Assembly: GCA_964407495.1 (NCBI GenBank) | Contig: CAYOVP010000001.1 | Coordinates: forward strand, 11,829-75,828 | Source: an uncultured Thermodesulfobacteriota bacterium | Lineage (GTDB): Bacteria; Desulfobacterota; GWC2-55-46; JADFVP01 | Direction: 5' to 3' | DNA length: 64,000 bases | Part shown: one piece after another, positions 2,206 through 46,991 of the stretch | How the letters are laid out: every line of letters begins with the position of its first letter | Position numbering within the stretch: the first letter of the stretch is position 1 | Position numbers and translations under genes: made by a program | Notes under the pieces: model-generated | The model's input: only the letters and a program-made list of their open reading frames with translations | What the model was told of the DNA's origin: nothing | The model's database searches: none

Positions 2206-2229
2206 GAAGACCTCAGAGGTCTCTTGGGT

Positions 2230-3975: not shown

Positions 3976-3984
3976 GAGGCGGCC

Positions 3985-4515: not shown

Positions 4516-4578
4516 ACATAGCAGGCCAAGAGAAGAAGGTGCAGGCAGGTTGGTGTCTGAGTTTATGAGGGCTGGTGG

Positions 4579-6641: not shown

Positions 6642-6929
6642 GGCCGGAGCGCTGTGACCTTTATCACTGTTTTTTCCGCAAATCGGCGTTGATAATCAGA
6701 GACCGGTTTAACCTTGACTTGAGGCGGCCACTGTGCTAATAATCAGAGAAAAAATGACGAGTTCCATGGCAAACAAACTCCAGAGGCGGAGGCTGTCTTG
6801 AGGTTAAAGTCACCCTTCAGGAGATCGGGCGAAGGCCTCTCGGGCGTAGGTGCGTCCCGCCCAAGGGGCAGTAGATACCTTACCCTATTCTTCCTCACCA
6901 ACGATAGCGCCGCGCCAAGGCGCCTGAAG

Positions 6930-7781: not shown

Positions 7782-8132
7782 GAGTTCCGTCATAAGTGGT
7801 CTCGCCTGAACGCAGACAGGCCGGGGCTCAGGTGCGAAGTCCTTTGGCGGTCCTCCAGGCCTCCTTGGGGCAGGGACGGGAGATGGGGTGATAAGGAAAG
7901 CGGGGGGCTCTGACTGCGGCACCTGCCTTGGCGCTATGAGGTCTGTCTGGACGCTACAGCCCGGCTTGGGACTTGGAGGCCAGAAGGTGCCTGGCCCAGG
8001 CTTCCACGAGACAAACCCTCCTTCCTACGAATACCCTTTCTTTGGTCTGGAATCGGGAAACAAATAGTGTTATACTTTGATATTAAAGGAAATATACCAC
8101 CATATAAAATATAGACATACACAGGGAGCAAC

Positions 8133-10886: not shown

Positions 10887-10984
10887 GGGGCCGATGGTCT
10901 CAGGGGGCGGCTGCCAGAACTGATACCGCTGTTCCTGTCATGCCTTTTGCTGTGGCATCATCGGGGCCCGGTGCATGGGCTGAT

Positions 10985-11069
10985 ACTGGTTTTCTTTGCT
11001 CCGCTTTCTTTTTTCCAAAAGAAAGCGGAAGGTTTTCTCTGTCTTACTTTCTTTTTCAAAAAAAGTAAG
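10985..11069. repeat. Intergenic palindromic element, copy A (two tandem stem-loops; the 5' 44 nt are nearly identical to 54581-54627)
   Basis: Hairpin 1 at 11001-11028: 12-bp stem CCGCTTTCTTTT/AAAAGAAAGCGG, loop TTCC. Hairpin 2 at 11043-11069: CTTACTTT...AAAGTAAG. Sits after the secA stop and upstream of argJ. Confidence 0.7.
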
Positions 11070-11113
11070 GAAATCTTTTCACCTCATATCTTTTCATCTC
11101 AGGGGTTTTTCTA

Positions 11114-16606: not shown

Positions 16607-16872
16607 TTGACAGGCCTGATGGGCGCGCCTGCCTGAATCAAGTAACCGCATACCTCCCACTGCCGCACTATCTGGCCATAACCCTTTGATTGTAAAGGGG
16701 TTCTGGATACAGAGAGAGGTGACACATCTCGTCTCCATGGCCGCTTGGCCATGGCAGGTCTCTTGCCTCGCAAGACGCTTTCCTTATAAAAAGTAGGCAT
16801 ACTATGAAAAGTTTGCGGAGTTTTCTCTCCATGTCGGAGTGAAAACTTTTTTGTTTTCAGGGGGTTACCTCT

Positions 16873-16888
16873 TGGCATGGCTGTTGCT
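16873..16888 (+). promoter_or_regulatory. Sigma54 (RpoN) -24/-12 promoter, TGGCAT-N5-TTGCT, upstream of the minor-pilin operon
   Basis: cTTGGCATggctgTTGCTt: GG and GC elements at canonical 12-nt spacing, 38 nt upstream of ORF 16926. Adjacent upstream gene encodes a sigma54-dependent regulator. Confidence 0.7.
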
Positions 16889-16925
16889 TAATAATTGGTC
16901 GGATTCATAGTCCAGAAACCCGGGG

Positions 16926-17516
16926 GTGATAAGTAAGGCCATGAGTATAGGTGAAGAAATAAGAGAGAATTCAGGCCTGTTCCAGGTGGAGAGAAAACTG
17001 TCCAGAGCGCAAGGCCGGTCCCAGCGCGGGTTCAGCCTTGTAGAGATTCTCGTGGTCCTGGCCATATTCGGCACGCTACTTGCCATAGCGGCGCCCAATT
17101 TCCTCTCCACCACCTTCCCGCACATGAAACTAAAGAGCGCCTCGCGGGATATATTCTCCATCCTCCAGTACGCAAGGAGCAAGGCCGTGAACTCCACGCA
17201 GAAGTACGGCGTGCGTTTTGAACTCGACACATCTCCAAAGCAGTACATGGTGGTTACGAGGGCATCGGATACAGACCCCTGGACCAACGATACGAGTATC
17301 AGCCCGAGGGACCTCGAGGATGGCGCGGATATCTTCAGCGTAACCGTGGGAGCCGTAACCTACACCACGGGCACCACGGCGGTAATCGCCTTCGACCCCT
17401 TTGGGTCGGCCACCTCTGCTGAGATAAAACTCTACTCCACGGCAAAGGCCACGGACAGGTACAAGATAACGGTCTCGTCCGCCAGCGGGCGGGTGAAGAT
17501 ATCAACCACATGGTGA
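16926..17516 (+). CDS. Type IV minor pilin, GspH/FimT-like
   Basis: Class III signal/prepilin motif QRG|FSLVEILVVLAIFGTLLAIAAPNF (Gly-1, Phe+1, Glu+5). True start possibly GTG near 16986, giving a ~15-aa leader. Confidence 0.85.
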   Translation: MISKAMSIGEEIRENSGLFQVERKLSRAQGRSQRGFSLVEILVVLAIFGTLLAIAAPNFLSTTFPHMKLKSASRDIFSILQYARSKAVNSTQKYGVRFELDTSPKQYMVVTRASDTDPWTNDTSISPRDLEDGADIFSVTVGAVTYTTGTTAVIAFDPFGSATSAEIKLYSTAKATDRYKITVSSASGRVKISTTW

Positions 17517-17959
17517 GAAGAATGAAGGAAAAACTCTTTGAAGGTCAGGACGGCTTTACCTTGCTGGAGATAATGATCAGCATTTTCATCCTAACAGTGG
17601 CCCTCTTGACGCTCTCGGGCCTCATGACGAGCAGCATACGAAGTACGGACTTCGGGAGAAAGACGACAGAGGCCGCCAACCTTGCTCGCGAGACCCTTGA
17701 GCAGATAGAGCGCCAGGCCGCAGTCAACTTTGACAGCGTCCAGGACTCTGTGGCCGGAAGCGACCCTGTGGCCGGAGTGAACCCGGACCAGGTGGAGGAC
17801 TACGGCACCATATCAGGCCACCCGTCCTTCAGGCGCGAGACCTACATAACCGACGGCGCGGCGCCTGTAAACTCCAAGGACGTTGCAGTAAAGGTCATCT
17901 GGGACGACACCATAGGATCTGGCCACAACGTCATCTTCAGGACAGTCATCGCGAGATAG
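17510..17959 (+). CDS. pilV: Type IV minor pilin, PilV-like
   Basis: Prepilin motif G|FTLLEIMISIFILTVALLTLSGL followed by a small periplasmic domain. Confidence 0.8.
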   Translation: MVRRMKEKLFEGQDGFTLLEIMISIFILTVALLTLSGLMTSSIRSTDFGRKTTEAANLARETLEQIERQAAVNFDSVQDSVAGSDPVAGVNPDQVEDYGTISGHPSFRRETYITDGAAPVNSKDVAVKVIWDDTIGSGHNVIFRTVIAR

Positions 17960-17963
17960 AAAC

Positions 17964-20900
17964 ATGCGTTTAACTCGAATACTGCATAAAGAGCGCGGAT
18001 TCACCCTTGTAGAACTCCTCGTGGCCATGGCCATCGGGGTGCTCGTCATAGGCTCGGTGTACGCGCTCTACAATTATTATCTGCGTGCCTCCACGGGCCA
18101 GGACAACCTCCTCCAGATACAGCAGGAGACGAGGGTGACCATGGAGAAACTGGTGAAAGAGGTACGCGCCGCAGGGTGTTACTACAAGGATACGCCCATC
18201 ATAACCGCTGATGTGAGTACCTTTGAGTTCGAGTCTGATACAGACCCAGACCCCAATCTCGGCCCATGGAAGATAAAATACGAACTCGATACAACCACCA
18301 ATGAACTCAAGAGGAGCACGGCCACATGGAATGGTTCGGCCTATGGCGCATATGGAACGCCCGTGGTCCTTGCAGGCGATATTACGGCCCTTACCTTCAG
18401 TTATTATGACGAGAACGATACCCTGATCCCTGCGCCGGTCCAGTCACAGGCCAATAGAGACCGCATCCGGCGGGTAGGCATAGCCATGACGGCATCTACG
18501 CCATACCCCAACCCCTCTACCAACAAGATAGACACCATTGACCTCGAGACCAGCATATCCCTTCGGTGCATGGGTGTACAGCAGTCCACGGACACTACTG
18601 AATGTGCACTGCCAACTAATATACAGTCCACAGACCCAGGTGTATGCGGAAGGCTGAACATCACCTGGACCAAGAGTTCCAGTTCCGATGCCGCGGGATA
18701 CAAGTTGTATTACCGTCCCACCGGGACGGCCTTTTACACAGGCCTCATAGACGTACCCGGAGGGGCTACCGAGTCTTACACCCTTACGGGTCTTACCGAT
18801 GGACAACAGTATGATATTGCCATGAAGTGTTATGATACATCTGGCAATATCAATGAATCCTTTACAACTCCAATATCAGGTACGAGCGGAACTACGGACA
18901 CGAAGCCCGATGATTCCACGGCGCCGGAACTTCCGGCCAATACGGACGCCACGGCAGGGGACGGTGTGGTTACGCTCACATGGGACGCCAGTACCTCTGT
19001 GGACGCAGGCGGCTACCACGTGTACAGGAGTGATAATGGCGGCTCTACCTACTCGCAGATAGCGGAACTCGACTCCACCTATCTGACCTATTCCGACACT
19101 ACGGTCGCAAACTGCCCTTCAACCCCCTATTATTACAAGGTAGTCACTTGGGACTGCGCTGGTAACGAGAAGAATACTGCCTTACAGAGCGCCGTATACG
19201 GTGACGGCTCGGACACTGGAGCCGACCAGCCCACTGCAGGTGTAACGAGTACTGATCCCTACGAGACCGTGGCCCCGGCAGACCCTACGCCCTTCATTGC
19301 TGTGCCTGCGGCTGACAAGATATACATGAGCGATACTACGCCGGCAGATACGGACCTCGCTGGTGTACGTATCCTTCGAAGGACGGACCAGTACCCCAGC
19401 GGCCCCACAGATACTTCTGCCATAGGCCCCAACAACAGGCCGGATTACGGCGCGCTCCAGCCCTCGCAGACATATTCGCTCGTTGACAGTTATGGCATAA
19501 ATATCGGCACTACGTACTATTACAGGGCCTTTGCCTATGACAGGTGTGGCAACTTCAGCCCAGGGGCCTCATCCCTTGCCACTGCCGCCCCATGCGGTGA
19601 CGGAAGCCCCGGGTCCAAGCACTATGGCCCACCGTCTGCCCCTTCGTCGCTCTCAACATCCACCTGCTCTACATCTACGGTCTCATGGACAGACTCGGCG
19701 GGGAGTGAGAACGGTAACCTCTTCAACCCGGCTTCTGAGAGTGATGTGGTGGGTTACTACGTATACAGGAGCGATGTACAGGGAGGGCCCTATACAAAAC
19801 TCAATAGTACGCCTGTAACGGCAACGAGTTATGCCGACAGCACAGTAACCCCTGGCACCACCTATTACTACACCGTTACTGCCGTCGACTGCGCACTCAA
19901 CGAGAGCACGGTCATGTCTCCTGAGGTCACGGTCATGCCCACGGACATTGCCTGGGACCCTGCCATCACTGTAATTACCTCGGGGACCGCCTCGCTGAGC
20001 GGGAGCCAGCACAACGTGGTGACCATAGGCATAAAGAACACGGGTAACAGTTCAGTCACCATAAACTCTGCTACCTTTGTCTGGGGCGTTGCCACTGCCA
20101 AACTCCGCAAGGTGGTGCTCGAGCCCTTTGGGGGGAGCAGTAATACTCTCTGGGACGGCACGGACGTGGCCTCTGGATATGTGGTGGACTTTGCCTCCTA
20201 TGAGCCGGACGGTTCTCTCCGGAGGCTCTCCGGGTCAACGGGTCTGAACAAGTTCGTACTGGACTTCAGGGACTCGGCGGGCACAGGCTTTGTGGACATG
20301 AGAGGCGCCAGCATCGTAGTCACTCTCAACTACACGAACGACCTTGACGGCGCCTCCTGCAACTCGAGCACATTTACAGTGCCCGTGACCGTGGGCCCCA
20401 CCATCACGGCCAGTGTGCAGGACAGGCCCGTAACCCCGACTACGTCAAACGTAAATGCCGCTAACATAACGGTAAAGACGGGTACCCAGGATACGAATTA
20501 TAACTGGACTTCCTATGACGTGAACGTCAGCGACACTGTGAGCCCTGACACTGGCACCACCATAACCTCAGCAAAACTCTATTACAACACAACGGACAAG
20601 ACCACTGCCTCTGCCCCTGCCACGGATTATTCCTCTACGCCATCGGGATGGACAGCCATAGACATGTGCCAGGTGGGCACTACCAATACATACCAGACAG
20701 AGTCCTCTGGAACGTGTACATCGAGCCATGTGCCAGACCTTACGGGCAAGAGGGTCTGGTACTACATCGTCATGACAGACAGCGACGGCAATTATGATAT
20801 CCAGCCAGAGCCTTCGGTGGGTGTGTATACCTATGACCAGGACTCGAGGTTCGACATATATATGGTCGTAAATAGGAGCGGCAGTGGTGGTCAGGACGTG

Positions 20901-32106: not shown

Positions 32107-32122
32107 CCTTGCCATGGCAAGG
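32107..32122. promoter_or_regulatory. Perfect 16-bp palindrome CCTTGCCATGGCAAGG in the divergent promoter region between the rSAM and GGDEF-EAL genes
   Basis: Self-complementary 16-mer read directly. Located ~40-110 bp upstream of the candidate GGDEF-EAL starts (32161/32233), in an AT-rich stretch. Confidence 0.4.
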
Positions 32123-32160: not shown

Positions 32161-34227
32161 GTGTACTATATTTTATTTATAGTACCTCATGTGAGCACGC
32201 CTTTCTGCCTCTGGCAAAGGAGCCGCCCTGCCATGGCACCTTCCGAGTGTAAAGATACGACCTCCTTGCAGGGAAAACCCTTTATTCCCTTCCTCACCTT
32301 CATCGGTGTAATATTCATAGTCGAATTCTTTGTGATGTTGCTTCTCAAGTACCTCAGCGTGGAGGAGACGGTACTCGAGTTCGTGGGCGACTCTATCATG
32401 TTGTCCATAATTAGCGCTCCCTTCCTCTATGTCTTGGTAATAAGGGTCTTCGTCAAGCGCATCGAGGCCGAGAGCGAGAAGGCGAGGGTAGCCTTGGCCA
32501 ATGAGATAAAGGCCAGGGCCTCTGCCGAGAAACTGGCCCTCAAGGCATATGCAGATGATATCGTAAAGAGTGTACCCGCGGGCCTTCTCTCTGTCTCTAA
32601 AGACCTGAAGGTCGTCTCGGCCAATCCTGCCTTTTGCAAGATGTTTTCCCTCAAATCTGTTCCTGTGGGCAGACCCGTCTCAGAGTTGGAGTCCCTCGCA
32701 AAATGCATGGAAATGATACGCTCGGCCCTTGGTGAGAATGCGACCAAGGGAGAAAAGATAATCAAACGGGGAGAGGGAGCGGCTACGGAGTACTTCAAGG
32801 TAAATGTTACACCCATCGTTCACGCTGAAGAGTCGGGGGCGGGTGTCCTCCTCGTGGCCGAGAACATCACCAAGAGATGGGCTACGGAAAAGAAGATATT
32901 CCACATGGCCTACCACGACCCCCTTACAGGGCTGCCCAACAGGCGTCTTCTCCTCAACAGGCTTAAGCATGCCCTGGCGGGCATGGAACGGGAGGGCTTG
33001 ATGGTTGCCGTACTGCTGCTTGACCTCGACCGCTTCAAGTTCATAAACGACAGCCTGGGTCACGAGTCTGGAGACGAACTCCTAAGAGAGGTTGCCAGGA
33101 GGCTCCTCCTCTCGCTCCGTAGAGCCGATACGGTGGCGCGTTTCGGGGGTGACGAGTTTGTCATACTTCTTACGAGAATCAAGGAAGAAAGAGATGTCTT
33201 GCGGGTAGTAAGGCGCCTCACAGCCACCTTTGACGCCCCGGTGAAACTCAAGCATCACGAACTGCATGTAACAACGAGCATAGGAGTAAGTGTTTATCCT
33301 GCAAGCGGAAGCACAGCAGAGATACTTGTCAAGAACGCTGATATCGCCATGTACGAGGCCAAGAAGGAAGGGGGCAACAACTTCAAGTTTTACAGGTCTG
33401 AGATGGAGGCCATTGGTGCGGAGTGGATAAAACTTGAGAGCAAACTCCGGATGGCCCTGGAGCACGAGGAGTTCGTCCTCTATTACCAGCCCCAGGTCAG
33501 CGTGGCGAGCGGTGAACTCGTTGGCCTCGAGTCGCTCATACGCTGGCAGGACCCTTCTGCAGGCCTTATAAGCCCCGGTGAGTTCATATACATGGCAGAG
33601 GAAATAGGGCTCATCATACCCATAGGTGAGTGGGTGTTTCGCAGGGCCTGCGCCCAGTTAAGGGCCTGGCAGGATAAGAGTCTAAAGGCGCCACGCGTCA
33701 GCGCCAATATCTCCATGCTTCAGTTCAGGCAGGAGGGCTTCCTGAATTTCGTCATAGACGTCCTCGATGAGACGGGGATAGACCCCTCCATGCTGGAGAT
33801 AGAACTTACAGAGAGCATGGTCATGAAGAACGCGCAAGAGACTATCAAGAGGCTCCAAGCCCTGAAGGACCTGGGGCTCAGGCTTGCCATAGATGACTTT
33901 GGAACAGGGTACTCATCGCTCTCATACCTTAAACAGATGCCCATAGATGTATTGAAGATAGACCAGAGTTTTGTAAGGGATATTACCCTCCACCCAGGTG
34001 ATGAGGCGATTATCAAGGCCATCATACAAATAGGAGAGAATCTCGGTATAGAGACCATAGCAGAGGGCGTGGAGACAGAAGAACAACTCGCCTTTTTGAG
34101 GCATCATAACTGCGTAAATTTTCAGGGATACTATGTGTCGAGGCCCGTGCCCGCCGTAGACGTGGAGGTCTTTCTCGTTCCGGACTGGCGTTTCAGGCCC
34201 CCCCGCACCACCCCGCCGGAGCATTGA
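32161..34227 (+). CDS. Membrane-anchored PAS-GGDEF-EAL protein (diguanylate cyclase/phosphodiesterase)
   Basis: TM segments at N-terminus, GGDEF motif RFGGDEF, EAL-domain motifs ([23 protein letters not shown]). Start may be ATG 32233. Confidence 0.9.
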
Positions 34228-34932
34228 GCCCCCATGCGCCCGAAGTTGCCATGCTGAGAGGCCCATGGTCTTTTTCCCAACCGCTCCTTCACCAGCGGCC
34301 CCTCTACGAGTAGCCTCCCGTCCCCCTCTTCGCCTTCTCCTTTGACGCTCCGGACGCTCCCATAAAGAAGAAATGTCACAACCCATGAGCCAGACGCCGG
34401 CCAATTCACATTTTTTTTATTTTAATTCTAATATCTCGGCGTGAAAACCGCTTTAGCCCTACTTCGGTGAAAATACTATGTTTAATGTCTCCTTGCCAAG
34501 GTTATAAGATCTCCTATTTTTCACAACCTGTGTGTAGGAGGTCTTTTTTTTGCTTGCGCTTTAACTTTTTTTGGTATATTCTCAAATGGACAGCGTAAAA
34601 GACCTGTTCTGGCAACCCTGTTCTTTGACCCTTGCGCGCGTATTTTCCGAGGTATATAGAGCCTATGTAACATCCTTGAATCATGAAAGGTTTAGCAATG
34701 GCTTCGGAACCTCAGGCTTCACCAGGACATAGAGGGCCCAGAGAAAGACAACGAACATACGCAACGCCGCAAACGTACCCTTACTCCAGATCCAAGGGTC
34801 TATACATATCCCGAGGCACCCTGCTCCACTGGTACACCCCCATACCTGGCAATAACATTTTACAAGACGCCGCCCTCCATGAGACCTTCGCGCCTCACGC
34901 CTTCTCATTGCGCCTCTCTGACGAAAAGAAAG

Positions 34933-36915
34933 ATGTACCTCTCTTTTGGAAAGAAGATCTTCCTGGCACTCCTGGCCGTTGCCCTGCTCCCGCTCCTCTC
35001 GGCCGGGATAGTTGTCTACCGCCTGGCAGATAGTGCCATGAAAAAAGAGGTGCTCGATGGCCTCTCTGCCCTCTCTGTGAGCACCTTCGAGCACTTTGTG
35101 GATTATGTCGATGAGAAGGAAGACATTGTCAACCTCCTTGCAAGGACCCAGGTGGCGAAGAAGGCCCTGGAAGACCTTGAGAGGGCATATAAAGACGGCG
35201 CAAAGGACAGAGCCTCTTTCAGGACACTCATGGAGAGGTACAGAGAGATCTTCACCCCCTTTCTCCGTGCCGACTTCTCTAATATCTATCTTCTTTCAAG
35301 GGAAGGGGATGTACTTTTCTCTCTCGAAGGGAGAGAAGACCTTGGCCGGAACCTTGTCTCCGAGACCTACAAGGGTACGGAACTTGCCAATGTCTTCAGG
35401 AAGGTACGCGCGAGTTCGAGAATGAATATCTCAGAGTTACGGATCTTTCCCCCCACGGGGAAGCCGGCGGCCTTCATAGCCGCGCCGATAATGAAGGGCG
35501 GTAAGGCAAGGGGCGTCATTGCCTTCAAACTCGATACCAAGGGCCTGTACAGGCATCTGACCGATTACACGGGCCTTGGGATGACGGGCGAGATCTGCCT
35601 CGGTACGCGCCTTAACGGCAAGATAGTCTTCGCAGGCCCCCTGAGGCACGACCCTGCCGCCGCCTTCAGGAGAACGGTTACCCTTGGTTCTCCGCTTGCA
35701 AGACCTCTTCAGTATGCAGTTGCCAGGAAAAGAGGCTCGGGTATCGTCCTCGACTACAGGGGCAAGAAGACGGTTGCGGTCTGGCGGTACTTCGAACCCC
35801 TTCATCTCGGTTTTGTAGTGAAGCAGGACGTGGACGAGGCCTTTGCTCCGGTTGCGGCCATCCGGCGGTGGGCCCTCATAATAGGCGGCATTACTGTCAT
35901 CTTTGTCATGTTCGTCTCCGCTGTAGTTGCAAAGTCTGTCTCCAGGCCCATCAAGAGACTGCAGGATGGCGTAGAGAGGGTAGGCAGGGGAGACCTATCG
36001 CACAGGGTGGGAACTGATACCATGGACGAGATAGGACAACTCTCCAGAGCAGTGGACGCCATGACAGAGAACCTCAGCCGGATTACCGCCTCGCGCGACG
36101 AACTGGACAGGGAAATAGCCGTCCGCAAGAAGGCCGAGCGGGATATGCGAAAGAGCGAGGAGCGGCTCCGCGAGTACTCGAGAAACCTCGAGGTAATGGT
36201 GGACAGGCGCACTGCCGCGCTGAGAGACATGCAACGCCAACTCATACAGAAGGAGCGTCTTGCCGCCATAGGCCAACTTGCCAGCAGTATCGGGCATGAA
36301 CTCCGTAACCCCCTCGGCGTCATCGGCAACTCTGTCTATTACCTAAGGATGAAACTCAAGGCCCCTGAGGAGAACATCGAAAAGCACCTCGATATCATGG
36401 ACCGCGAGATAAGAAGGACCAACAGGATAATCTCCGATCTTCTCGATTTTTCCAAGGCCCGCGTACCGCAACTCCAGAAGGGTGACATCAACGACCTCGT
36501 ACGAGAGACGCTCCTCGACTTGCAAGCCCCACTAGAGGTACGGGTGAAGACAGACCTTGGAAAAGACCTGCCCCTGTTCCTCTTCGACCCCGACCAGGTA
36601 CGCCAACTCCTCGTAAACCTCATAAACAACGCCTACCAGGCCATGGACTCTGGAGGAAGGCTCCTTGTAAGGACGGCCCTTACCCATGGTTTTGTGGAGA
36701 TAACGGTACAGGACACGGGCCCCGGCATACCCGAGAAGGAACTTCCAAGGATATTCGAGCCCCTTTACTCTACACGGGCCAAGGGCACTGGTCTTGGGCT
36801 CTCCATAGTAAAGGGCATTGTAGAGAGACACGGCGGGTTCATAACCGTTGAGAGCAGGACGGGCGAGGGGGCTACCTTCAGGGTAAGGCTCCCCATTGCC
36901 CAGGAAGGTATCTGA
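34933..36915 (+). CDS. Sensor histidine kinase with periplasmic Cache-like domain, HAMP, HisKA, HATPase_c
   Basis: TM helix FLALLAVALLPLLSAGIVVY, second TM then HAMP, H-box LASSIGHELRNPLGVI, N/G boxes (NLINNAYQAM, DTGPGIP, GTGLGLSIVKG). ATG 34933 inside ORF 34879-36915. Confidence 0.9.
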   Translation: MYLSFGKKIFLALLAVALLPLLSAGIVVYRLADSAMKKEVLDGLSALSVSTFEHFVDYVDEKEDIVNLLARTQVAKKALEDLERAYKDGAKDRASFRTLMERYREIFTPFLRADFSNIYLLSREGDVLFSLEGREDLGRNLVSETYKGTELANVFRKVRASSRMNISELRIFPPTGKPAAFIAAPIMKGGKARGVIAFKLDTKGLYRHLTDYTGLGMTGEICLGTRLNGKIVFAGPLRHDPAAAFRRTVTLGSPLARPLQYAVARKRGSGIVLDYRGKKTVAVWRYFEPLHLGFVVKQDVDEAFAPVAAIRRWALIIGGITVIFVMFVSAVVAKSVSRPIKRLQDGVERVGRGDLSHRVGTDTMDEIGQLSRAVDAMTENLSRITASRDELDREIAVRKKAERDMRKSEERLREYSRNLEVMVDRRTAALRDMQRQLIQKERLAAIGQLASSIGHELRNPLGVIGNSVYYLRMKLKAPEENIEKHLDIMDREIRRTNRIISDLLDFSKARVPQLQKGDINDLVRETLLDLQAPLEVRVKTDLGKDLPLFLFDPDQVRQLLVNLINNAYQAMDSGGRLLVRTALTHGFVEITVQDTGPGIPEKELPRIFEPLYSTRAKGTGLGLSIVKGIVERHGGFITVESRTGEGATFRVRLPIAQEGI

Positions 36916-36916
36916 G

Positions 36917-37282
36917 ATGTATGGAAAAAAGATAAGGGTCCTCGTAGTGGACGACGACCACGGCATGAGAGAGACGCTCAGGGATATCCTCGGTGAGATG
37001 GGCCATGATGTGAGCCTTGCCGGAAACGGGCATGAGGCACTGGAACTTGTGCAGAGGCAGGACTTTGATATCGCCTTCATTGACATAAAGATGCCGGGTA
37101 TCAACGGCGTTGAGACCTTTAGGCGCATAAAAAAGATACAACCCGGCCTCAGGGTGGTCATGATGACGGCCTTTGCACTTGGCGAACTCATAGACGAGGC
37201 TCGTAGAGAGGGGGCCGTGGACATACTTTACAAACCACTGCAGATAGACAAGATGAAGCCGCTCCTTGCCTGCTCTGGTTGA
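36917..37282 (+). CDS. Stand-alone response-regulator receiver (CheY-like)
   Basis: KIRVLVVDDDHGMRE...DIAFIDIKMPGINGVE...VVMMTA. ATG 36917 after a GGAAGG SD; immediately follows the HK stop. Confidence 0.85.
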   Translation: MYGKKIRVLVVDDDHGMRETLRDILGEMGHDVSLAGNGHEALELVQRQDFDIAFIDIKMPGINGVETFRRIKKIQPGLRVVMMTAFALGELIDEARREGAVDILYKPLQIDKMKPLLACSG

Positions 37283-37368
37283 GGGGCCGGGGCGGTGCTG
37301 GGGCCGCCCTCTCTATGCTGTGGCTACGTAGTTGGACAGGGCGCAGTTCAAAAAAAACGGTAGAAAAA

Positions 37369-40300
37369 ATGGAGGAGACGAGAATTCTCATAATAGATGA
37401 CAACGCAGGCGCGCGTGAGACCCTCTCGGACATCTTGACGGAGAAGGGCTACAGCGTCACCGCCGTCGGTAGGGGTGTAGAGGCCCTGGACCTGGCGGCA
37501 AGGGAGAACTTCGCCCTGGCCCTCATTGACATATGCCTACCTGACATGGACGGTATCACCCTCCTTAGGGGGCTCAAGAAACTCAACCCCTCTATGCTCG
37601 CCTTCATCATCACAGGGCATTCCTCGCGCGATAATGCCATAGAGGCCCTCAAGGCAGGCGCAGACGATTACTTCATAAAACCCCTTAATATTGACGAGGT
37701 AATGAGGCGTGCGGAGCAGGGTCTTCGAGAGATGGAGTTGAGGGAGCGTCTTCGGCAGAGCGAGGAGAAGTTCCGTGGCCTCTTCGAGTCTTCCAATGAC
37801 GCCATAATGCTTCTTGACGAGAAGTCCTTTATTGACTGCAACGAGGCCACGCTCCGTGTCTTCAGGATGAAGACCAAGGAGGAGTTTCTTGGTTGTCACC
37901 CGGGCGAACTCTCGCCCCCCAGGCAGGAAGACGGTAGGGACTCTATTAGTGCCGCTAACGAGAAGATAAAAGTGGCGCTGCGCGAGGGCAGGAACTTCTT
38001 CGAGTGGACGCACATGCGCGCCGATGGCACCACCTTCCCGGCAGAGGTCCTGCTATCTGCCTTGACCATGGAGGGCAGGCGCGTACTCCAGGCCACTGTG
38101 CGCGATATTACGGAGAGAAAACGGGCCATACAGGACCTTGACAGGCTCTTCAACCTCTCAGGCTCCATGGCCTGTATCATCGACTTCAAGGGATTTTTCC
38201 GGCGCGTGAGCCCGGCCTTTACCGAGACCCTGGGATACACCACCGAAGAACTCCTCGCAAGGCCTGTCCTTGACTTCATACATCCCGAGGACAGGGCGAG
38301 GACCCTCGAGGCGCGTGAGTCCAAACTAATGAAGGGCACGGAGATAACGGACTTCGAGAACCGCTATGTATGCAAGGACGGCAGAGTAAAGTGGCTCTCA
38401 TGGACATCCCGCCCCATACCAGAAGACGGTATAATCCTTGCCATTGCCTATGACATAACAAGGCGCAAGGAGGACGAGGACGCCTTCGGTGCCCTCGTGA
38501 GGGCCACTGCCGCAAGCACGGGCCAGGAGTTCTTCGACGGCCTTGTAAGCGAACTCTCGAAGTGGCTCGGCGTGGACTGTTGTGCGATAGCGGACATCAG
38601 GGATGGCAAGGTGGTCTGCCTTTCCATGATTTGCGATGGCGATTATCTAAAGGATGTAGAGTATGACCTCGTTGGCTCGCCATGTGAGAAGGTCGTTTCC
38701 AGTGGCTACTGCGAATTTCCAAGGGATGTAAGGAAACTCTTTCCAGAGTATTTGCCCCTACAAGAGATGGGCGCCGAGGGTTACGTGGGTTCCGTTCTCA
38801 GGGACAGGCACTGCCGGCCCATCGGTGTATTGAGTTGCTTCTCCAGGTCGCCTCTTACCCTGCCCAAGAAGGCGAAGGAGGTCTTCTCCATAATGGCCGC
38901 AAGGGCCTCTGCCGAACTTGAGCGCATAAGGGCAGAGGAGGCGATGAGGGAGAGCGAGGAGAAGATGCGTGCCATCTCCGAGACGGCCCAGGACGCCATT
39001 ATTATTATAGATGACCTTGGGACCGTGGTTTACTGGAACCCCGCGGCAGTGAGGATATTCGGCTATGAAGAGGAAGAGGCCGTTGGAAGGGATTTCCCAG
39101 ATTTGCTGGGTTCGGAGAAGTCAAGAGAAGCCTTTATAAAGAGGTTTGGCGCCTTCAGGGATACGGGCAAGTGTCCCATGGTTGGCAGGGCCATTGAAAT
39201 GAAGGCAACAAGAAAGGACGGGTCGGTCTTTCCCATTGAGCATGCCATCTCTACAGTGAGGATCAAGGACAGGCTCTACGCCATCGGTATGATACGCGAT
39301 ATCAGCGAGCGCAAGGCCGCGGAGGAGAATATCAAGAAGGAGATGGAGATTACGCTCAACCTCCTCAAGATTACGGAGGCCATAGCCCACACCGACAACC
39401 TCGATGAACTCCTCGACCGCATAGTAGAGAGCACGGGGCCGGTTACTGGTTCGGACGTAACGCTATGTTATCTCGTTGAGAATGGCCGCGGCCAGCGCAT
39501 CGTGCCTACGAGTTCCGCGGGGCTTTCGCGCGACCAGGTCCCTCTTTTCAAGACAGAGTTTCTCGACCTCCACGGCTCCGCGCTCCGCGAGGCCTTTGCA
39601 AGAGGGCCGCAGGTAGTCCCTTCGGGCGACGTTGCCAGGCACTTTGGCTGGCTCCATGAGATCAAGACCCTCGCCATCATCCCCCTCAAGGGAAAGACCT
39701 CGGAGATAGGCGTACTCGTCCTTGGGTACAGGCAGGCGCGGGACGGTCTGGATGAGCGGGAGATGGCCCTCCTAAGGGGCATCGGCCACCATGTATCCAT
39801 TGCCGTTGAAAAGGCGCGCCATGCCAAGGACGCCATAGACCGGGCCATGGAACTCTCACACGAGATAGAGACCCTGGAGGTAATGCACGAGATAGACAAG
39901 ACCATACTCTCGACCCTCGATGCCTCGGAGATACGCCTCATCGCAGTGAATATGATAGGAAGGGTGGTGGCCTGCGACATGTGCACACTAAGGCTCGTGG
40001 ACAATAAAGGGGGCGGTCTCGTATATGCCGCAGGGTTCCAGTCACGCGGTGTCGATGAAGCGGAATTCGTCCCCCTTGGCGAGACGAGCGCCATCGAGGT
40101 GCTGGCCACGCAACGGCCCCAGTACATCTCTGACCTCAGAAAATTACACGAACGCCTCCCCTTTGAGGAGAGACTCCTCGAGGCAGGCTATCTCTCCCTC
40201 ATAAGGCTCCCCCTCATCGTAAAGAGCGAGATAACGGGCATAATGAGCCTCGCCTCGCGAAGGCCTGCGGCCTTTGGACCGGCAGACCTGGCCACCCTCG

Positions 40301-40962
40301 AGAAACTCTCTGCCCAGATAGTGGTGGCCCTCGAGAACTCGCGCCTCGTGGGAGACCTGGAGAACCTCCTCATCTCCACCATAAAGACCCTCTCCGATAC
40401 CATTGATGCAAAGAGCCCCTGGACGCGCGGTCATTCAGAACGGGTTACGGCCCTTGCGCTGAAACTTGCGAGAAAATTCGGGATAGACGGCGACAGGCTC
40501 AAGGACTTTGAGATAGGCGGGCTCCTCCATGACATAGGCAAGATAGGCACCTATGAGGACATACTCAACAAGCCCGGCAAACTCACGCCCGAGGAGACAG
40601 AGCAACTCCAGAAACACCCCCTCAAGGGCGCAGAGATACTCTCCAATATTCGTCAACTCGAGCACATCGTTCCCATCGTCCGCCACCACCACGAGTTCTA
40701 CGACGGAAGGGGGTATCCCGACGGCCTCAAGGGCGAACTCATCCCCTTTGAGGCGCGCATACTCTCAGTGGCAGACACGGTGGATGCCATGGCATCGGAC
40801 AGGCCCTACAGAAAGGGCCTTCCCATGAAGTTCATCTTCGAGGAACTCAAGAGATGCTCTGGCAAGCAGTTCGACCCAAAGGTCGTGAGTGCCTTCTTCG
40901 GACTTGTCCGCTCCTCGGATGGAGACTTCATGGAGGGCCTGACCCTCAACGGATCGCTATAG
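37369..40962 (+). CDS. Multidomain response regulator: REC - PAS/PAC x3 - GAF x2-3 - HD-GYP (c-di-GMP phosphodiesterase type)
   Basis: REC (ILIIDDNAGARE..DICLPDMDG), several PAS/PAC and GAF segments, C-terminal HD domain with HD..GK and HHEFYDGRGYPDGL (HD-GYP signature). Confidence 0.88.
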   Translation: MEETRILIIDDNAGARETLSDILTEKGYSVTAVGRGVEALDLAARENFALALIDICLPDMDGITLLRGLKKLNPSMLAFIITGHSSRDNAIEALKAGADDYFIKPLNIDEVMRRAEQGLREMELRERLRQSEEKFRGLFESSNDAIMLLDEKSFIDCNEATLRVFRMKTKEEFLGCHPGELSPPRQEDGRDSISAANEKIKVALREGRNFFEWTHMRADGTTFPAEVLLSALTMEGRRVLQATVRDITERKRAIQDLDRLFNLSGSMACIIDFKGFFRRVSPAFTETLGYTTEELLARPVLDFIHPEDRARTLEARESKLMKGTEITDFENRYVCKDGRVKWLSWTSRPIPEDGIILAIAYDITRRKEDEDAFGALVRATAASTGQEFFDGLVSELSKWLGVDCCAIADIRDGKVVCLSMICDGDYLKDVEYDLVGSPCEKVVSSGYCEFPRDVRKLFPEYLPLQEMGAEGYVGSVLRDRHCRPIGVLSCFSRSPLTLPKKAKEVFSIMAARASAELERIRAEEAMRESEEKMRAISETAQDAIIIIDDLGTVVYWNPAAVRIFGYEEEEAVGRDFPDLLGSEKSREAFIKRFGAFRDTGKCPMVGRAIEMKATRKDGSVFPIEHAISTVRIKDRLYAIGMIRDISERKAAEENIKKEMEITLNLLKITEAIAHTDNLDELLDRIVESTGPVTGSDVTLCYLVENGRGQRIVPTSSAGLSRDQVPLFKTEFLDLHGSALREAFARGPQVVPSGDVARHFGWLHEIKTLAIIPLKGKTSEIGVLVLGYRQARDGLDEREMALLRGIGHHVSIAVEKARHAKDAIDRAMELSHEIETLEVMHEIDKTILSTLDASEIRLIAVNMIGRVVACDMCTLRLVDNKGGGLVYAAGFQSRGVDEAEFVPLGETSAIEVLATQRPQYISDLRKLHERLPFEERLLEAGYLSLIRLPLIVKSEITGIMSLASRRPAAFGPADLATLEKLSAQIVVALENSRLVGDLENLLISTIKTLSDTIDAKSPWTRGHSERVTALALKLARKFGIDGDRLKDFEIGGLLHDIGKIGTYEDILNKPGKLTPEETEQLQKHPLKGAEILSNIRQLEHIVPIVRHHHEFYDGRGYPDGLKGELIPFEARILSVADTVDAMASDRPYRKGLPMKFIFEELKRCSGKQFDPKVVSAFFGLVRSSDGDFMEGLTLNGSL

Positions 40963-41112: not shown

Positions 41113-41709
41113 TCAACCGGCGAGGTTCGCCTTAACAAAGTCCCAGTTTATGAGGTTCTCTACAAAGGCCGCAAGGTAGTCGGGGCGGCGGTTCTGGTAA
41201 TCGAGGTAATAGGCGTGCTCCCAGACATCTACTGTAAGGAGCGGCTTGAGGCCCTGGGCAAGGGGGGTATCGGCATTGGCGGTCTTGATTATCTCCAGTT
41301 TCTCGTTACGAAGCACCAGCCAGGCCCAGCCGCTCCCGAACTGCGTTGCCCCTGCATTCTTCAGGGCCTCGGCGAACTTTTCGTACCCACCGAGGTCGGT
41401 GTTGATCTTCGCGAGTACAGCACCCGTGGGCTCGCCCCCTCCGCCGGGCTTCATGCACTGCCAGTAGAAGGCATGGTTCCAGGCCTGGGCCGCATTATTG
41501 AAGAGGCCGGTCTGGTCGGCCTTGCCAGCGGTCTTTTGTATTATGGTCTCGAGGTCTGCGCCCTCGAGGTCTGTACCCCCTATCATGGCCTTGGTCTTGT
41601 CTACATAGGCCTTGTGGTGCTTGCCATAATGAAACTCCAGAGTGCGTTCGCTGATGTAAGGGGCAAGGGCGTCTTTTGCGTATGGAAGGTCGGGCAGTGT
41701 TATGGCCAT
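41113..41709 (-). CDS. Fe/Mn superoxide dismutase
   Basis: MAITLPDLPY..LEFHYGKHH.. and the C-terminal metal-ligand motif DVWEHAYYL. Confidence 0.95.
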   Translation of the reverse strand: MAITLPDLPYAKDALAPYISERTLEFHYGKHHKAYVDKTKAMIGGTDLEGADLETIIQKTAGKADQTGLFNNAAQAWNHAFYWQCMKPGGGGEPTGAVLAKINTDLGGYEKFAEALKNAGATQFGSGWAWLVLRNEKLEIIKTANADTPLAQGLKPLLTVDVWEHAYYLDYQNRRPDYLAAFVENLINWDFVKANLAG

Positions 41710-41983: not shown

Positions 41984-42421
41984 TTATCTTCTCTTCTTTT
42001 TCCGCATTGGCACGCACTGGCACGTTGCCGAGAGGTCGGAGCAGATGATGTACCAGGGTGCGATTATATCCGTATCGTCTGTAGTCAGGGGTACGCGTTT
42101 ACAGAGGGGTCTGCCGTGGTCCTGGTTCATGGAGACCCCCATGCAGGACTTTATATGGTCTTTCTCTGAGACCCTCTGGCAGTAGGCCCTGCAGTCGAGG
42201 GCCCATCTTATCTGTAGATCTGCCACGGCAGGCGTCTCATCGGAGCAGACCCCTACGTCCCATATCGCTGTCATGCATGCCTCGATGGTGGGATAGGTGT
42301 CTCCATTGGCAACCCAGGGGTCGTGGTAATGCTTTGGCGGTGAGCAGGCGTAGTGTGTGCAACCGGCGATTACGAGGAGCGCGGCAAGGACAAGGGGGAG
42401 TATGGCTCTCTCTGTCATCAT
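41984..42421 (-). CDS. Cysteine-rich putative lipoprotein (11 Cys in 145 aa), hypothetical
   Basis: Signal peptide with lipobox LVIAGC, many Cys, basic KKKRR C-terminus. No recognisable domain. Confidence 0.5.
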   Translation of the reverse strand: MMTERAILPLVLAALLVIAGCTHYACSPPKHYHDPWVANGDTYPTIEACMTAIWDVGVCSDETPAVADLQIRWALDCRAYCQRVSEKDHIKSCMGVSMNQDHGRPLCKRVPLTTDDTDIIAPWYIICSDLSATCQCVPMRKKKRR

Positions 42422-44180: not shown

Positions 44181-44573
44181 ATGAAGATAGGCGAGTTCTC
44201 CAGACTGGCCGGCGTCTCTGTTGATACTGTGCGCTACTACGAAGGCAGGGGACTGCTGGAAAAACCGGCCCGCAGGGAGTCCGGTTACAGGGTGTACTCT
44301 GGCAAGGACCTCAGGCGTCTCAGGTTTATCATCCATGCCAAGGAACTGGGTTTCACCCTCCATGAGATAGGGCAACTTCTCTCCATACGCTCTGATGGGA
44401 GTGAGTGCGAGAGCGTCAAGGCCCTGGCAGAGCAGAAGGCGGAGGAAATGGAGGAGCGGATGAGAAAGATGGCCCGCATGAGGGACGTGCTCCTTGAACT
44501 TGCAGAAAAGTGCGGCGAGAGGGGAGGCCTTGACCCCTGTCCCATCCTGAAGGCCCTGGAGGAAGAAGGATGA
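44181..44573 (+). CDS. merR: Hg(II)-responsive transcriptional regulator MerR
   Basis: N-terminal HTH MKIGEFSRLAGVSVDTVRYYEGRGLL. Cys76/Cys111/Cys120 spaced 35 and 9 residues apart, the same spacing I recall for the Hg-coordinating Cys82/117/126 of Tn501 MerR, with C-x8-CP. Confidence 0.9.
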   Translation: MKIGEFSRLAGVSVDTVRYYEGRGLLEKPARRESGYRVYSGKDLRRLRFIIHAKELGFTLHEIGQLLSIRSDGSECESVKALAEQKAEEMEERMRKMARMRDVLLELAEKCGERGGLDPCPILKALEEEG

Positions 44574-44905
44574 ACGTGCCGGGCCCAAAGGGAGAGAAGA
44601 CGAGCCTCATTGGCGCGGTCATCGCAGGAGGGCTTGCCTCGGCCTGCTGCGTGGGGCCTCTTCTGGTGGTCCTCCTGGGCCTCGGCTCGGCAGGGGTTTT
44701 TGTGAAGATGGAACCACTGAGGCCCCTATTCGCCCTTATTACCCTTTCGCTAATCGGCATCGCGGGCTTCAGACACGTAAGGGGCAGAAGGGCGTGCGCC
44801 GCGGGCGGCTGCGCACCCCGTAGGCCTGTAATGCTCTTTATCCTCGGCGGACTCGCGCTCCTCCTGCTCCTTCTTCCCTCGGTCCTGCCCTATATTATCG
44901 AGTAA
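44570..44905 (+). CDS. merT: Mercuric transport protein MerT
   Basis: TM1 vicinal Cys pair in GGLASACCVGPLLVVLLGLG, ~111 aa with 3 TM helices, overlaps the merR stop. Confidence 0.88.
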   Translation: MNVPGPKGEKTSLIGAVIAGGLASACCVGPLLVVLLGLGSAGVFVKMEPLRPLFALITLSLIGIAGFRHVRGRRACAAGGCAPRRPVMLFILGGLALLLLLLPSVLPYIIE

Positions 44906-44917
44906 GGAGAACTTATC

Positions 44918-45214
44918 ATGGGAAAATTATTAATAGTCGTCATGCTCGCCGTCCTTGCGGCCATACCGGCAAGATACGCATCTTCAAAGGAGGCGACGGC
45001 TGTAATCCACGTATCCGGCATGACCTGCAACATGTGCCCCATAACCATACGCCGCCGCGTCCTCAAGATGGAGGGCGTACTGGAGGCACAAGTGGACCGA
45101 AAGGCCGGGAGAGCGAACGTGACGTATGACGACAGCCTGCTCTCTGCCGAGGCTATTGCCAGGGCCGTAACGGAACTTGGATATCCGGCGGAGTTGGAGG
45201 AAGAAAAGAAATGA
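44918..45214 (+). CDS. merP: Periplasmic mercury-binding protein MerP (HMA domain)
   Basis: Signal peptide plus GMTCNMCP metal-binding motif (GMTCxxC). Confidence 0.9.
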   Translation: MGKLLIVVMLAVLAAIPARYASSKEATAVIHVSGMTCNMCPITIRRRVLKMEGVLEAQVDRKAGRANVTYDDSLLSAEAIARAVTELGYPAELEEEKK

Positions 45215-45318
45215 AGAAGACAGAGAACAGGAAGGCGGGCTGGGCGGGGTTTATAATCTTTGCTGTAATACTCGTGGGCATCGTATATCTTATGACCAGG
45301 TGCGGCGGCACCTGTTAG
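45211..45318 (+). CDS. 35-aa single-TM peptide with C-terminal CxxxC (MKKTENRKAGWAGFIIFAVILVGIVYLMTRCGGTC), translationally coupled to merP
   Basis: ATG overlaps the merP stop (ATGA). GGAGG SD 10 nt upstream. Basic N-terminus, one hydrophobic helix, C-terminal CGGTC. Below the ORF-track size cutoff; coding status is an inference. Confidence 0.45.
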   Translation: MKKTENRKAGWAGFIIFAVILVGIVYLMTRCGGTC

Positions 45319-45322
45319 TGCC

Positions 45323-46991
<1,669 letters not shown>

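Follow-up and report, generated by a model that had tools for sequence, protein, structure and literature searches.

A conserved histidine kinase, stand-alone receiver and HD-GYP gene unit in a Thermodesulfobacteriota bacterium, with predicted branched control of c-di-GMP hydrolysis

The window, a stretch of 64,000 nucleotides from an uncultured Thermodesulfobacteriota bacterium, carries four plus-strand genes, here termed G1, HK, G3 and G4 (Table 1). The first-pass annotation had described them as consecutive members of a c-di-GMP/two-component signalling cluster. Pfam domains, motifs (HHEFYDGRGYPDGL among them) and the list of longest open reading frames (32161-34227, 34879-36915, 36896-37282 and 37279-40962) supported both this gene content and the cluster type, and a check of catalytic residues demonstrated that the GGDEF, EAL and HD-GYP domains are all intact (0/3 degenerate). 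The protein lengths read from these frames were too long and were replaced by those in Table 1, with starts set by ortholog alignments and public gene calls. The frame of G1 opens at GTG 32161, with a likely start at ATG 32233 just after AAGGAG (664 aa also in the public gene call), and that of HK opens at ATG 34879, used by some callers (678 aa), with ortholog alignment placing the start at ATG 34933. G4, previously given as 1227 aa from TTG 37279, begins at ATG 37369 by ortholog alignment and public gene call, and its start is conserved in orthologs as M-x-x-x-[ILV]-L-I-[IV]-DD.

Table 1. Coordinates of the genes, domains and sequence elements discussed (positions in the window).
Feature	Position	Strand	Description
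Palindrome CCTTGCCATGGCAAGG	32107..32122	.	16-bp, perfect; divergent intergenic region between a radical-SAM gene (minus strand) and G1
G1	32233..34227	+	664 aa; 2 TM - coiled linker - weak PAS - GGDEF - EAL
Sigma-70-like promoter block TTGCGCTTTAAC-N6-TGGTATATT	34554..34580	+	extended -10; upstream of the kinase operon
Leader	34581..34932	+	~350 nt, promoter to HK start; length conserved, sequence poorly conserved
HK (histidine kinase)	34933..36915	+	660 aa; TM - dCache-like (~285 aa) - TM - HAMP - coiled coil - HisKA - HATPase_c
G3 (stand-alone receiver)	36917..37282	+	121 aa; REC only; ATG 1 nt after kinase TGA
G4	37369..40962	+	1197 aa; REC - PAS - PAS - GAF (weak) - PAS - GAF - GAF - HD-GYP
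G4 receiver domain	37384..37710	+	phospho-acceptor Asp in LALIDICLPDMDG; Pfam 8e-26
G4 HD-GYP phosphodiesterase domain (predicted)	40387..40884	+	HD_5 5e-37
Fe/Mn superoxide dismutase gene	41113..41709	-	Pfam Sod_Fe_N, Sod_Fe_C; convergent with G4

G1 has two transmembrane helices (residues ~20-38 and ~55-73 in a hydropathy scan) and clear GGDEF (3e-52) and EAL (4.5e-75) matches in Pfam, its PAS domain falling below threshold. The GG[DE]EF site, the RxxD I-site (RRAD) five residues upstream and the guanine-binding Asn/Asp are present and conserved in six orthologs, as are E-S-L, DDFGTG, EGVE and QGY; the EAL catalytic set is complete (E of ExL, N, ExxE, DDFGTG, KxD, EGVE, Q), with LESLIRW at the EAL motif where orthologs read EAL or ETL. 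The top matches among solved structures are 5M3C ('Diguanylate cyclase') and 4RNH ('Motility regulator'), with E-values of 1e-125 to 1e-128. G1, in which the synthase, I-site and hydrolase residues are all intact, would be a membrane enzyme of the GGDEF-EAL type transcribed on its own, probably acting on the same nucleotide pool as G4. It is a frequent neighbour of the HK-G3-G4 module and no obligate part of it. Other genes take its place in two related loci: a P-type ATPase gene in L022 and toxin-antitoxin-like genes in L024. The picture of a compact four-gene cluster had to be given up on this ground and because 705 bp, containing a conserved sigma-70-like promoter of their own, separate G1 from HK. 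Proximity to a pilus island, also pointed out earlier, is a feature of the window's own lineage only: L006 and L008, the two further loci whose sequence extends beyond G1 on its upstream side, carry different genes there.

HK shows the orthodox HisKA-type arrangement, with two transmembrane helices (residues 9-27 and 314-332 by hydropathy scan) flanking a periplasmic sensor, followed by HAMP, an H-box histidine and HATPase_c. Pfam returned dCache_1, HAMP, HisKA and HATPase_c, the dCache_1 match lying just under the cut-off of 45 bits (43.2 on the 660-aa reading, 1.8 short; 41.2 on the 678-aa frame, 3.8 short); precomputed annotations list dCache_1 for the window's 678-aa product and for most orthologs. 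The H-box SSIGHELRNPL and the next helix are invariant in eight orthologs, and the kinase core is nearest to AtoS/ZraS models.

Two receivers follow the kinase. G3, whose start had been described as overlapping the HK stop codon, instead begins immediately behind it, with a ribosome-binding site in the junction (AGGAAGG-N7-ATG), and this one-nucleotide spacing suggests that G3 is probably translationally coupled to HK. Its only Pfam match is Response_reg (1e-28), and seven orthologs keep the DD pair, the phospho-acceptor D of FIDIKMPG, the T of MMTAF and the K of KPL. Segment-wise Pfam searches of G4 returned REC, three PAS, two clear GAF and one weak GAF (E 2e-4) and HD_5/HD, and no NCBIfam equivalog reached its cut-off. 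The G4 receiver contains IIDDN, LIDICLPD, IITGH and IKP, and G4 combines, like RpfG/RpfX, a receiver with an HD-GYP output. G4 has 11 full-length ortholog clusters of 62-100% identity; orthologs retain the DD, D, T and K residues of the receiver, the one deviation being P0003, where Glu replaces the phospho-acceptor Asp.

The term phosphorelay, used in the first-pass annotation, does not fit these proteins: neither an Hpt domain nor a kinase-fused REC was found in the four proteins (Pfam) or among the called genes of related loci. Since an Hpt domain is missing, the layout is, by its domain content, a branched one in which a single HK would serve two receivers, and not a His-Asp-His-Asp phosphorelay. 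Both receivers are nearest to ZraR/AtoC receivers, and their alpha-1 segments share 10/15 positions with each other, as opposed to 5-6/15 with a PilR-like receiver of the window. Overall identity between G3 and the G4 receiver is 39%, no higher than the 38% that the latter shares with the PilR-like receiver, an unrelated protein, so the proposal of a shared kinase rests on synteny and this one helix.

A role of G3 as a phosphate sink is plausible: it consists of a REC domain alone, its phosphorylation site is intact, and its gene accompanies that of a kinase. Sequence neither supports nor refutes the idea, and sink and effector are not separable by it. We see a real, if lesser, chance that G3 is instead an active regulator or second output, which in phosphorylated form binds the kinase and shifts its kinase/phosphatase balance, or binds a target further downstream (a motor, a pilus or an enzyme, for example). 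DivK acts in the former way on DivJ/PleC, CheY, CpdR and other single-domain receivers bind downstream targets, and receivers of this kind with protein targets are well documented. A pure sink requires little besides the phosphorylation site, whereas G3 equals the other genes in conservation (62-70% identity) and keeps all its phosphorylation residues; against an active role, no conserved candidate target gene adjoins the operon, its upstream side being variable and its downstream neighbour being the superoxide dismutase gene.

The promoter block upstream of HK is the most conserved part of the gap in 8/8 related loci, including the kinase-less L012, and is unique within the window. Its -35 element is weak or oddly spaced, and the transcription start is a predicted one. 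The distance from the -10 block to the kinase ATG is 320-384 nt in relatives. Searches of the leader for known RNA elements, cyclic-dinucleotide riboswitches among them, gave no Rfam match at gathering or relaxed threshold, and RNAalifold gave zero conserved pairs across eight leaders; the window's leader folds no better than shuffled sequences (z-score +1.5), and a search of the leader for a conserved uORF peptide found none.

The clustering of HK, G3 and G4 was confirmed by comparison of seven related loci, where they form a conserved block without interruption: the three genes adjoin one another in the window and in L006, L007, L008/L009, L022, L023 and L024, at 56-76% amino acid identity, the relatives being Thermodesulfobacteriota MAGs. 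In the L012 MAG, the kinase and most of G3 are lost through a deletion that brings the promoter and leader up to the tail of G3, with G4 intact behind it; a single transcript covering all of these would account for this outcome. The convergent superoxide dismutase gene adjoins G4 in every related locus reaching that far, and we claim no functional link; synteny with these relatives extends over the whole 15-kb downstream block (superoxide dismutase, hypothetical, thioesterase, mer operon, Kelch-TPR). This synteny indicates that closeness of the genomes accounts for part of the conservation, and the grouping could be mostly inherited gene order without shared function, with G1, the pilus island and superoxide dismutase as unrelated neighbours and with G4 run mainly by PAS/GAF ligands, its receiver being minor or vestigial. 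The dispensability of G1 as a neighbour, the intact G4 beside a lost kinase and G3 in L012, and the Glu at the G4 phospho-acceptor in P0003 are consistent with such a reading, which we nevertheless judge unlikely: three changes in the upstream flank have left HK, G3 and G4 contiguous, the kinase and G3 appear translationally coupled, the receiver residues are otherwise invariant, and a similar layout (HK, stand-alone REC and REC-PAS-HD-GYP) recurs in the unrelated contig L147. The L012 and P0003 cases do suggest that G4 may work without phosphorylation in some lineages.

The 16-bp palindrome upstream of G1 lies exactly where it had been reported, and its symmetry is perfect; a significance as a regulatory site was not supported. 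That it is the operator of a dimeric transcription factor controlling G1 and/or the divergent radical-SAM gene is improbable, even though the dyad is perfect and lies between divergent promoters in an intergenic region of 423 bp, ~27 bp past the -35 hexamer predicted on the minus strand and 110 bp ahead of the ATG of G1. It is the sole perfect palindrome of at least 16 bp in the window, where chance alone predicts about one per 64 kb, and it is absent upstream of G1 in all five orthologous promoter regions compared (0/5; L006, L007, L008, L012 and L023). The suggested search for further copies yielded no second non-coding one in the window, where the TGCCATGGCA core recurs three more times, each time as in-frame Ala-Met-Ala codons. 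A metagenome-wide scan matched scattered contigs only, and neither the sample of the window itself (3300023507) nor the two sister samples contributed any.

The HD-GYP domain of G4 contains the HD dyad (LLHDIGK) and the HHExxDGxGYP signature (HHHEFYDGRGYPD) that mark class II cyclic-dinucleotide phosphodiesterases, both being invariant or conservatively varied in 11 orthologs. Its PDB matches are V-cGAP3 (5Z7C, 2.9e-38) and PmGH (4MCW, 2.1e-32). Residue-by-residue alignment to 4MCW, read against the ligand list in PMC4159591, demonstrated equivalents of the seven PmGH metal ligands common to both HD-GYP subgroups (H189, H221, D222, H250, H276, H277 and D305) and of the catalytic Lys K225, together with GYP, all invariant in the 11 orthologs. 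These two subgroups are described in the literature, and E185 has been linked to full hydrolysis to GMP (PMC4159591; bioRxiv 10.1101/2021.11.05.467447). Trp (SPWTRGH) occupies the E185 position in G4 and all orthologs, which departs from the trinuclear E/D-T-G pattern and thus places G4 in the aromatic subgroup, with a predicted binuclear centre.

The predicted substrate of G4 is c-di-GMP, yet the best solved match of its HD-GYP domain is annotated as a 3'3'-cGAMP-specific phosphodiesterase. Signalling by cGAMP through Hypr-GGDEF enzymes, which have Ser at a GGDEF position that is Asp in canonical enzymes, is known in Geobacter, of the same phylum, and G4 shares the local motif DAKSP[Y/W]T.GHSERV with V-cGAP3. 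If G4 acted on 3'3'-cGAMP, in place of c-di-GMP or besides it, the cyclic dinucleotide under control of the operon would differ from the G1 product. We consider this unlikely: the difference between the two E-values is small and specificity-determining residues have not been established, the GGDEF domain of G1 has the canonical Asp (GHESGD) as do all six G1 orthologs, no cGAMP synthase or cGAMP riboswitch was seen in the window, and characterised Desulfovibrio REC-(PAS)-HD-GYP proteins act on c-di-GMP and yield pGpG (PMC4114195).

Taken together, these features lead us to favour, with reasonable though not high confidence, an HK-G3-G4 operon in which branched phosphotransfer gates c-di-GMP hydrolysis by the HD-GYP domain. 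The three genes would form one operon, read from the sigma-70-type promoter ~350 nt upstream of the kinase. HK would sense an extracytoplasmic ligand via its dCache-like domain, autophosphorylate at the H-box histidine and pass the phosphoryl group directly, without Hpt, to two NtrC/ZraR-type receivers, G3 and the N-terminal receiver of G4. Phosphorylation of the latter, together with ligands of the three PAS and three GAF domains, would gate the C-terminal HD-GYP domain. With seven of the eight PmGH metal ligands kept and Trp in place of the third-metal Glu, a binuclear Fe/Mn centre is expected, which would open c-di-GMP mainly to pGpG. G3 would draw on the same phosphoryl flux as a possible sink, feedback or side output, and thereby shape the strength and duration of G4 activation. 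A bolder version, which we regard as a long shot, makes G3 a dedicated sink or feedback element setting the gain of a kinase-gated six-sensor HD-GYP protein, in a module being rewired in nature: it is suggested by the L012 deletion, which keeps promoter, leader and G4, and by the lineage with Glu at the acceptor, and would have the ~350-nt unstructured leader add a layer of control and cGAMP as a further twist.

REC-PAS/GAF-HD-GYP regulators form a known class, of which G4 is another member: like the RpfG/'RpfX' regulators (REC-HD-GYP and REC-PAS/GAF-HD-GYP), it has an N-terminal receiver, a complete C-terminal HD-GYP domain and sensors between them. DVU2933 of Desulfovibrio vulgaris, from the same phylum, is encoded together with a kinase and the regulator DVU2934 in an operon of five genes, and pGpG is the product of its HD-GYP domain (PMC4114195). 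The G4 gene likewise stands in an operon-like arrangement beside those of a histidine kinase and another response regulator; G4 has six intervening sensor domains (three PAS and three GAF) in contrast to one PAS there, and its partner G3 is a stand-alone receiver whereas the second Desulfovibrio regulator is DNA-binding. G4 resembles PmGH of Persephonella marina in its GAF-HD-GYP junction and in its ligand, Lys and GYP residues, and differs in having the W-T-R of the aromatic 'Y/F' subgroup where PmGH, of the E/D-T-G subgroup, has its third-metal ligand E185. V-cGAP3 of Vibrio cholerae is the closest solved HD-GYP protein and shares the aromatic residue at the E185 position as well as the local motif given above; it matches the G4 query in two separate stretches, the first weak (27 bits), and was named cGAMP-specific by its depositors, whereas G4 has a single HD-GYP domain behind REC, PAS and GAF domains. 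The G1 GGDEF-EAL tandem aligns over ~430 residues, with all catalytic motifs, to the Pseudomonas aeruginosa proteins 4RNH and 5M3C, which we take to be MorA and RmcA; G1 differs from them in its N-terminus, only a two-TM hairpin and one weak PAS, and in ESL in place of the usual EAL. A related circuit layout is that of the DivJ/PleC-DivK-PleD system of Caulobacter, where the gene of a single-domain receiver precedes that of a receiver-coupled c-di-GMP enzyme in the same operon under the same kinases, and where DivK, the small receiver, modulates the kinase; there, however, the output is a diguanylate cyclase and not an HD-GYP protein, the kinases are encoded elsewhere and the circuitry belongs to the alphaproteobacterial cell cycle. 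HnoK-HnoB-HnoD (Shewanella/Vibrio) and VieS-VieA-VieB (V. cholerae) similarly couple one kinase to a phosphodiesterase regulator and an auxiliary tuning receiver protein, although their phosphodiesterases are of the EAL type and their auxiliary regulators are more than receivers, HnoD having a degenerate HD-GYP and VieB a C-terminal domain in addition.

All four forward-strand reading frames described in the first-pass annotation are present in the window, and their domain content is as it described (see table). Hydropathy scans place two transmembrane helices in G1, the membrane GGDEF-EAL protein, with a loop of about 16 residues between them, and two in HK, the dCache-HAMP histidine kinase, with about 285 periplasmic residues between them. 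Public gene calls on the JGI metagenome contig Ga0257019_1000020, identical in sequence to the window, give products of 664, 678, 121 and 1197 aa for G1, HK, G3 (the stand-alone receiver) and G4 (the REC-PAS/GAF-HD-GYP protein), respectively. Ortholog alignments set the HK start at ATG 34933 (M-x-L-S-[FIM]-G-K-K, 660 aa), the G3 start at ATG 36917 and the G4 start at ATG 37369. A length of 1227 aa for G4 and a G3 start overlapping the HK stop had been reported because the longest possible reading frame was taken; G4 is 1197 aa by the public call, and the G3 ATG lies one base past the kinase TGA. This one-base spacing, with AGGAAGG ahead of the ATG, is a layout typical of genes predicted to be translationally coupled.

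Features of the signalling cluster and its surroundings, in window coordinates
Feature	Position	Strand	Content
Type IV pilus island	13722-29679		PilS/PilR-like pair (kinase and sigma-54 activator), minor pilins, PilMNOPQ
Large protein in pilus island	17964-21179		1071 aa; N-terminal pilin methylation motif and fn3
Palindrome	32107-32122		CCTTGCCATGGCAAGG, exact; within the 423-bp divergent radical-SAM/G1 region
G1	32233-34227	+	GGDEF (3e-52), EAL (4.5e-75), sub-threshold PAS ahead of both (Pfam)
Promoter-like block	34554-34580		TTGCGCTTTAAC-N6-TGGTATATT (extended -10)
Promoter-like block plus leader	34554-34932
Open frame in leader	34683-35033		116 aa
HK	34933-36915	+	dCache_1-like periplasmic domain (43 bits, cut-off 45), HAMP, HisKA, HATPase_c
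G3	36917-37282	+	Receiver domain alone
G4	37369-40962	+	REC, PAS, PAS, weak GAF (E 2e-4), PAS, GAF, GAF, HD-GYP (HD_5 5e-37)
145-aa reading frame	41984-42421	-	No Pfam match
Mercury-resistance operon	44181-46991		MerR, MerT, MerP-like HMA, 35-aa reading frame, MerF, MerA

The catalytic motifs are intact, rather than degenerate, in all three c-di-GMP domains. The G1 GGDEF domain carries RRAD-x5-GGDEF and the guanine-binding N...D pair, and its EAL domain has the full set (ESL, N, ExxE, DDFGTG, KxD, EGVE and Q); these motifs are kept in six orthologs, where the ESL position reads EAL or ETL. Among solved structures, G1 is closest to two GGDEF-EAL tandems from Pseudomonas aeruginosa, 5M3C and 4RNH (E about 1e-125). 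The G4 HD-GYP domain matches the solved structure PmGH (4MCW) at H189, H221/D222, K225, H250, H276/H277, D305 and GYP, and all of these are invariant in 11 orthologs. At the position of PmGH E185, the third-iron ligand, G4 and all its orthologs instead carry Trp. HD-GYP domains divide into an E/D-T-G group, which is trinuclear, and an aromatic group, predicted to be binuclear, and E185 has been linked to complete hydrolysis to GMP (PMC4159591; bioRxiv 10.1101/2021.11.05.467447). Because Trp occupies this position, the G4 domain falls in the aromatic, predicted binuclear group, and hydrolysis is expected to end mainly at pGpG. Among solved sequences the domain matches V-cGAP3 best, a protein annotated as cGAMP-specific, so c-di-GMP is a presumed substrate of G4.

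A search of 5.8 billion proteins returned only 11 full-length ortholog clusters of G4 (62-100% identity), all of metagenomic or MAG origin and labelled Thermodesulfobacteriota or Deltaproteobacteria; outside these clusters, only individual domains match G4. Gene order was compared across the window and seven independent related loci. The HK-G3-G4 order is retained in the related loci wherever the kinase is present, with HK and G3 abutting or overlapping (mostly 1 nt apart), 70-90 nt between G3 and G4, and a convergent Fe/Mn superoxide dismutase gene after G4. The window, L006, L007, L008, L023 and L012 have G1 as the upstream gene; a P-type ATPase takes its place in L022 and a nucleotidyltransferase/HepT pair in L024. 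A long gap (523-901 bp) precedes the kinase in every case; across all eight loci, conservation within it peaks in the promoter-like block, 320-384 nt upstream of the kinase ATG. Synteny and this conserved block together argue that the conserved unit is a putative three-gene operon, HK-G3-G4, with its own promoter, and that G1 is a frequent but dispensable neighbour, probably transcribed separately. The description of a compact cluster with G1 as a member was thus overstated, given the gene replacements in L022 and L024 and the long promoter-bearing gap. Two distant matches, L016 and L019, were rejected as instances of the same architecture since their gene sets differ.

Natural variants bear on this arrangement. 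In L012 (MAG contig JBHHUW010000054.1, 3171-3992), a deletion of about 2.2 kb has removed the kinase gene together with ~80 codons from the 5' end of G3. G1 there precedes the conserved promoter and leader, which run into the final ~40 codons of G3 (ending in MTAFALDELIEEARSQGVLDVLFKPLEIEKLEPFFSMV and the stop) and then an intact G4. This deletion fits a predicted single HK-G3-G4 transcript from the conserved promoter, and it shows that G4 is able to persist without a neighbouring kinase. In P0003, a G4 ortholog of 75% identity, Glu replaces the phospho-acceptor Asp of the receiver (LALIEVRLPDMDG), which may make this receiver a phosphorylation-independent or constitutive variant. An additional PAS-sized insertion is present in three G4 orthologs of about 1330 aa.

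Searched against Rfam at the gathering and at a relaxed threshold, neither the 705-bp gap nor the 350-nt leader matched a riboswitch or structured RNA, in the window or in the seven related loci. RNAalifold gave zero conserved base pairs in the leader, the window leader folds worse than shuffled controls (z-score +1.5), and no fold beating shuffles, as a hairpin or attenuator, was found in the G3-G4 spacer of seven loci. Long open frames occur in the leader of several loci, including the window; a conserved upstream reading frame was rejected, as frames differ, peptides are unrelated between lineages and none matches Pfam. The length from promoter block to ATG is conserved and the leader sequence is not.

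The layout is that of one orthodox kinase with two receivers. Pfam detects no Hpt domain and no kinase-borne receiver in the four proteins, and the proposed multi-step phosphorelay is therefore unsupported. AtoS/ZraS models give the kinase core its best score, and ZraR/AtoC receivers do so for both G3 and the G4 receiver. The alpha-1 helices of the G3 and G4 receivers have 10 of 15 residues in common (xG.RETLxDILxExG), compared with 5-6 of 15 against the window's PilR-like receiver; their overall identity, 39%, is not distinctive. Adjacency, subfamily scores and alpha-1 likeness are indirect indications that both receivers are HK partners. The kinase DHp helix is invariant in 8 orthologs, which leaves no variation to pair with that of receiver alpha-1. 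For G3, roles as a sink, in feedback or as a second output are all conceivable. The initial interpretation holds in its core, a two-receiver c-di-GMP module under predicted kinase control; its compactness, G1 membership, phosphorelay, pilus link and palindrome were overstated.

The palindrome itself is real, and no other perfect one of at least 16 bp occurs in the 64 kb, a length for which chance predicts about one. Its 10-bp core, TGCCATGGCA, occurs four times in the window (11821, 32110, 32229 and 40785) against 0.14 expected. The three other copies read in frame as GCC-ATG-GCA (Ala-Met-Ala): one belongs to ArgJ, one is at the start codon of G1 and one is in the DAMAS motif of G4. Codon usage, not a motif, thus seems to account for the surplus. 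The palindrome is missing from the region ahead of G1 in five related loci, and a 16-mer scan of metagenome contigs gave 120 unrelated contigs. A repeated regulatory motif was rejected on these three grounds, and a sigma-54 promoter through the TGGCA of the palindrome was rejected for GG/GC spacing unsuitable on both strands. Nothing supports a regulatory role, although a lineage-specific one may remain.

The pilus island upstream is genuine; it adjoins the cluster only in the window's own lineage, and the upstream flank is DksA, GalT, a receiver and tRNA-Ala in L006 and an integrase in L008. Within the island, the PilQ secretin is 1145 aa long with three AMIN domains, and, for a pilin-like protein, the 1071-aa product is unusually long. 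A tRNA-like 3' end (T-arm GGTTCGATCC, then ...CCCTCCACCA) lies upstream of G1 in L007 (about 985-1020) and L008 (about 2665-2700), just downstream of a phage-type integrase in the latter; a degenerate copy occurs in L006 (about 4890-4930), and the window has none. A tmRNA or tRNA gene here was rejected, only a 3' fragment being present and ARAGORN and Rfam finding no gene; the remnant suggests an old integration site. Downstream, every related locus keeps a counterpart of the 145-aa reading frame (143-173 aa), flanked by the superoxide dismutase and thioesterase genes, and the mercury-resistance operon, 3 kb away, recurs in most of these loci.

Response regulators in which PAS or GAF domains separate REC from HD-GYP form a recognised class, RpfX, whose only assayed member is Desulfovibrio vulgaris DVU2933 (Galperin and Chou). 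The operon of DVU2933 likewise includes genes for a kinase and another regulator; with Mn2+, the DVU2933 HD-GYP domain yields pGpG (PMC4114195). Such multi-sensor regulators, REC-PAS/GAF-HD-GYP, occur commonly in genomes and are almost unstudied; the present operon and its natural variants, one without the kinase and one with Glu for Asp, might be compared to ask how receiver phosphorylation is integrated with PAS/GAF ligands. Three unrelated sampled REC-...-HD-GYP loci indicate that the design is recurrent: in L147 (JGI Ga0495363_000490, 684-11690), which comes from an unrelated lineage, genes for a PAS-rich kinase and a stand-alone receiver stand in one row with three successive REC-PAS-HD-GYP genes (490, 1263 and 607 aa); L146 is a chemotaxis-like cluster, CheA-CheB-REC-GAF-PAS-GAF-HD-GYP; and in L145 the gene upstream encodes a large multi-sensor protein and the one downstream a GGDEF protein. 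The operon holds no new component type and raises no new question; it is one more case, from an uncultured hydrothermal or sediment Thermodesulfobacteriota lineage, of a kinase predicted to feed two receivers, one of them fused to HD-GYP. DivK/PleD, HnoK-HnoB-HnoD and VieSAB are functionally analogous circuits.
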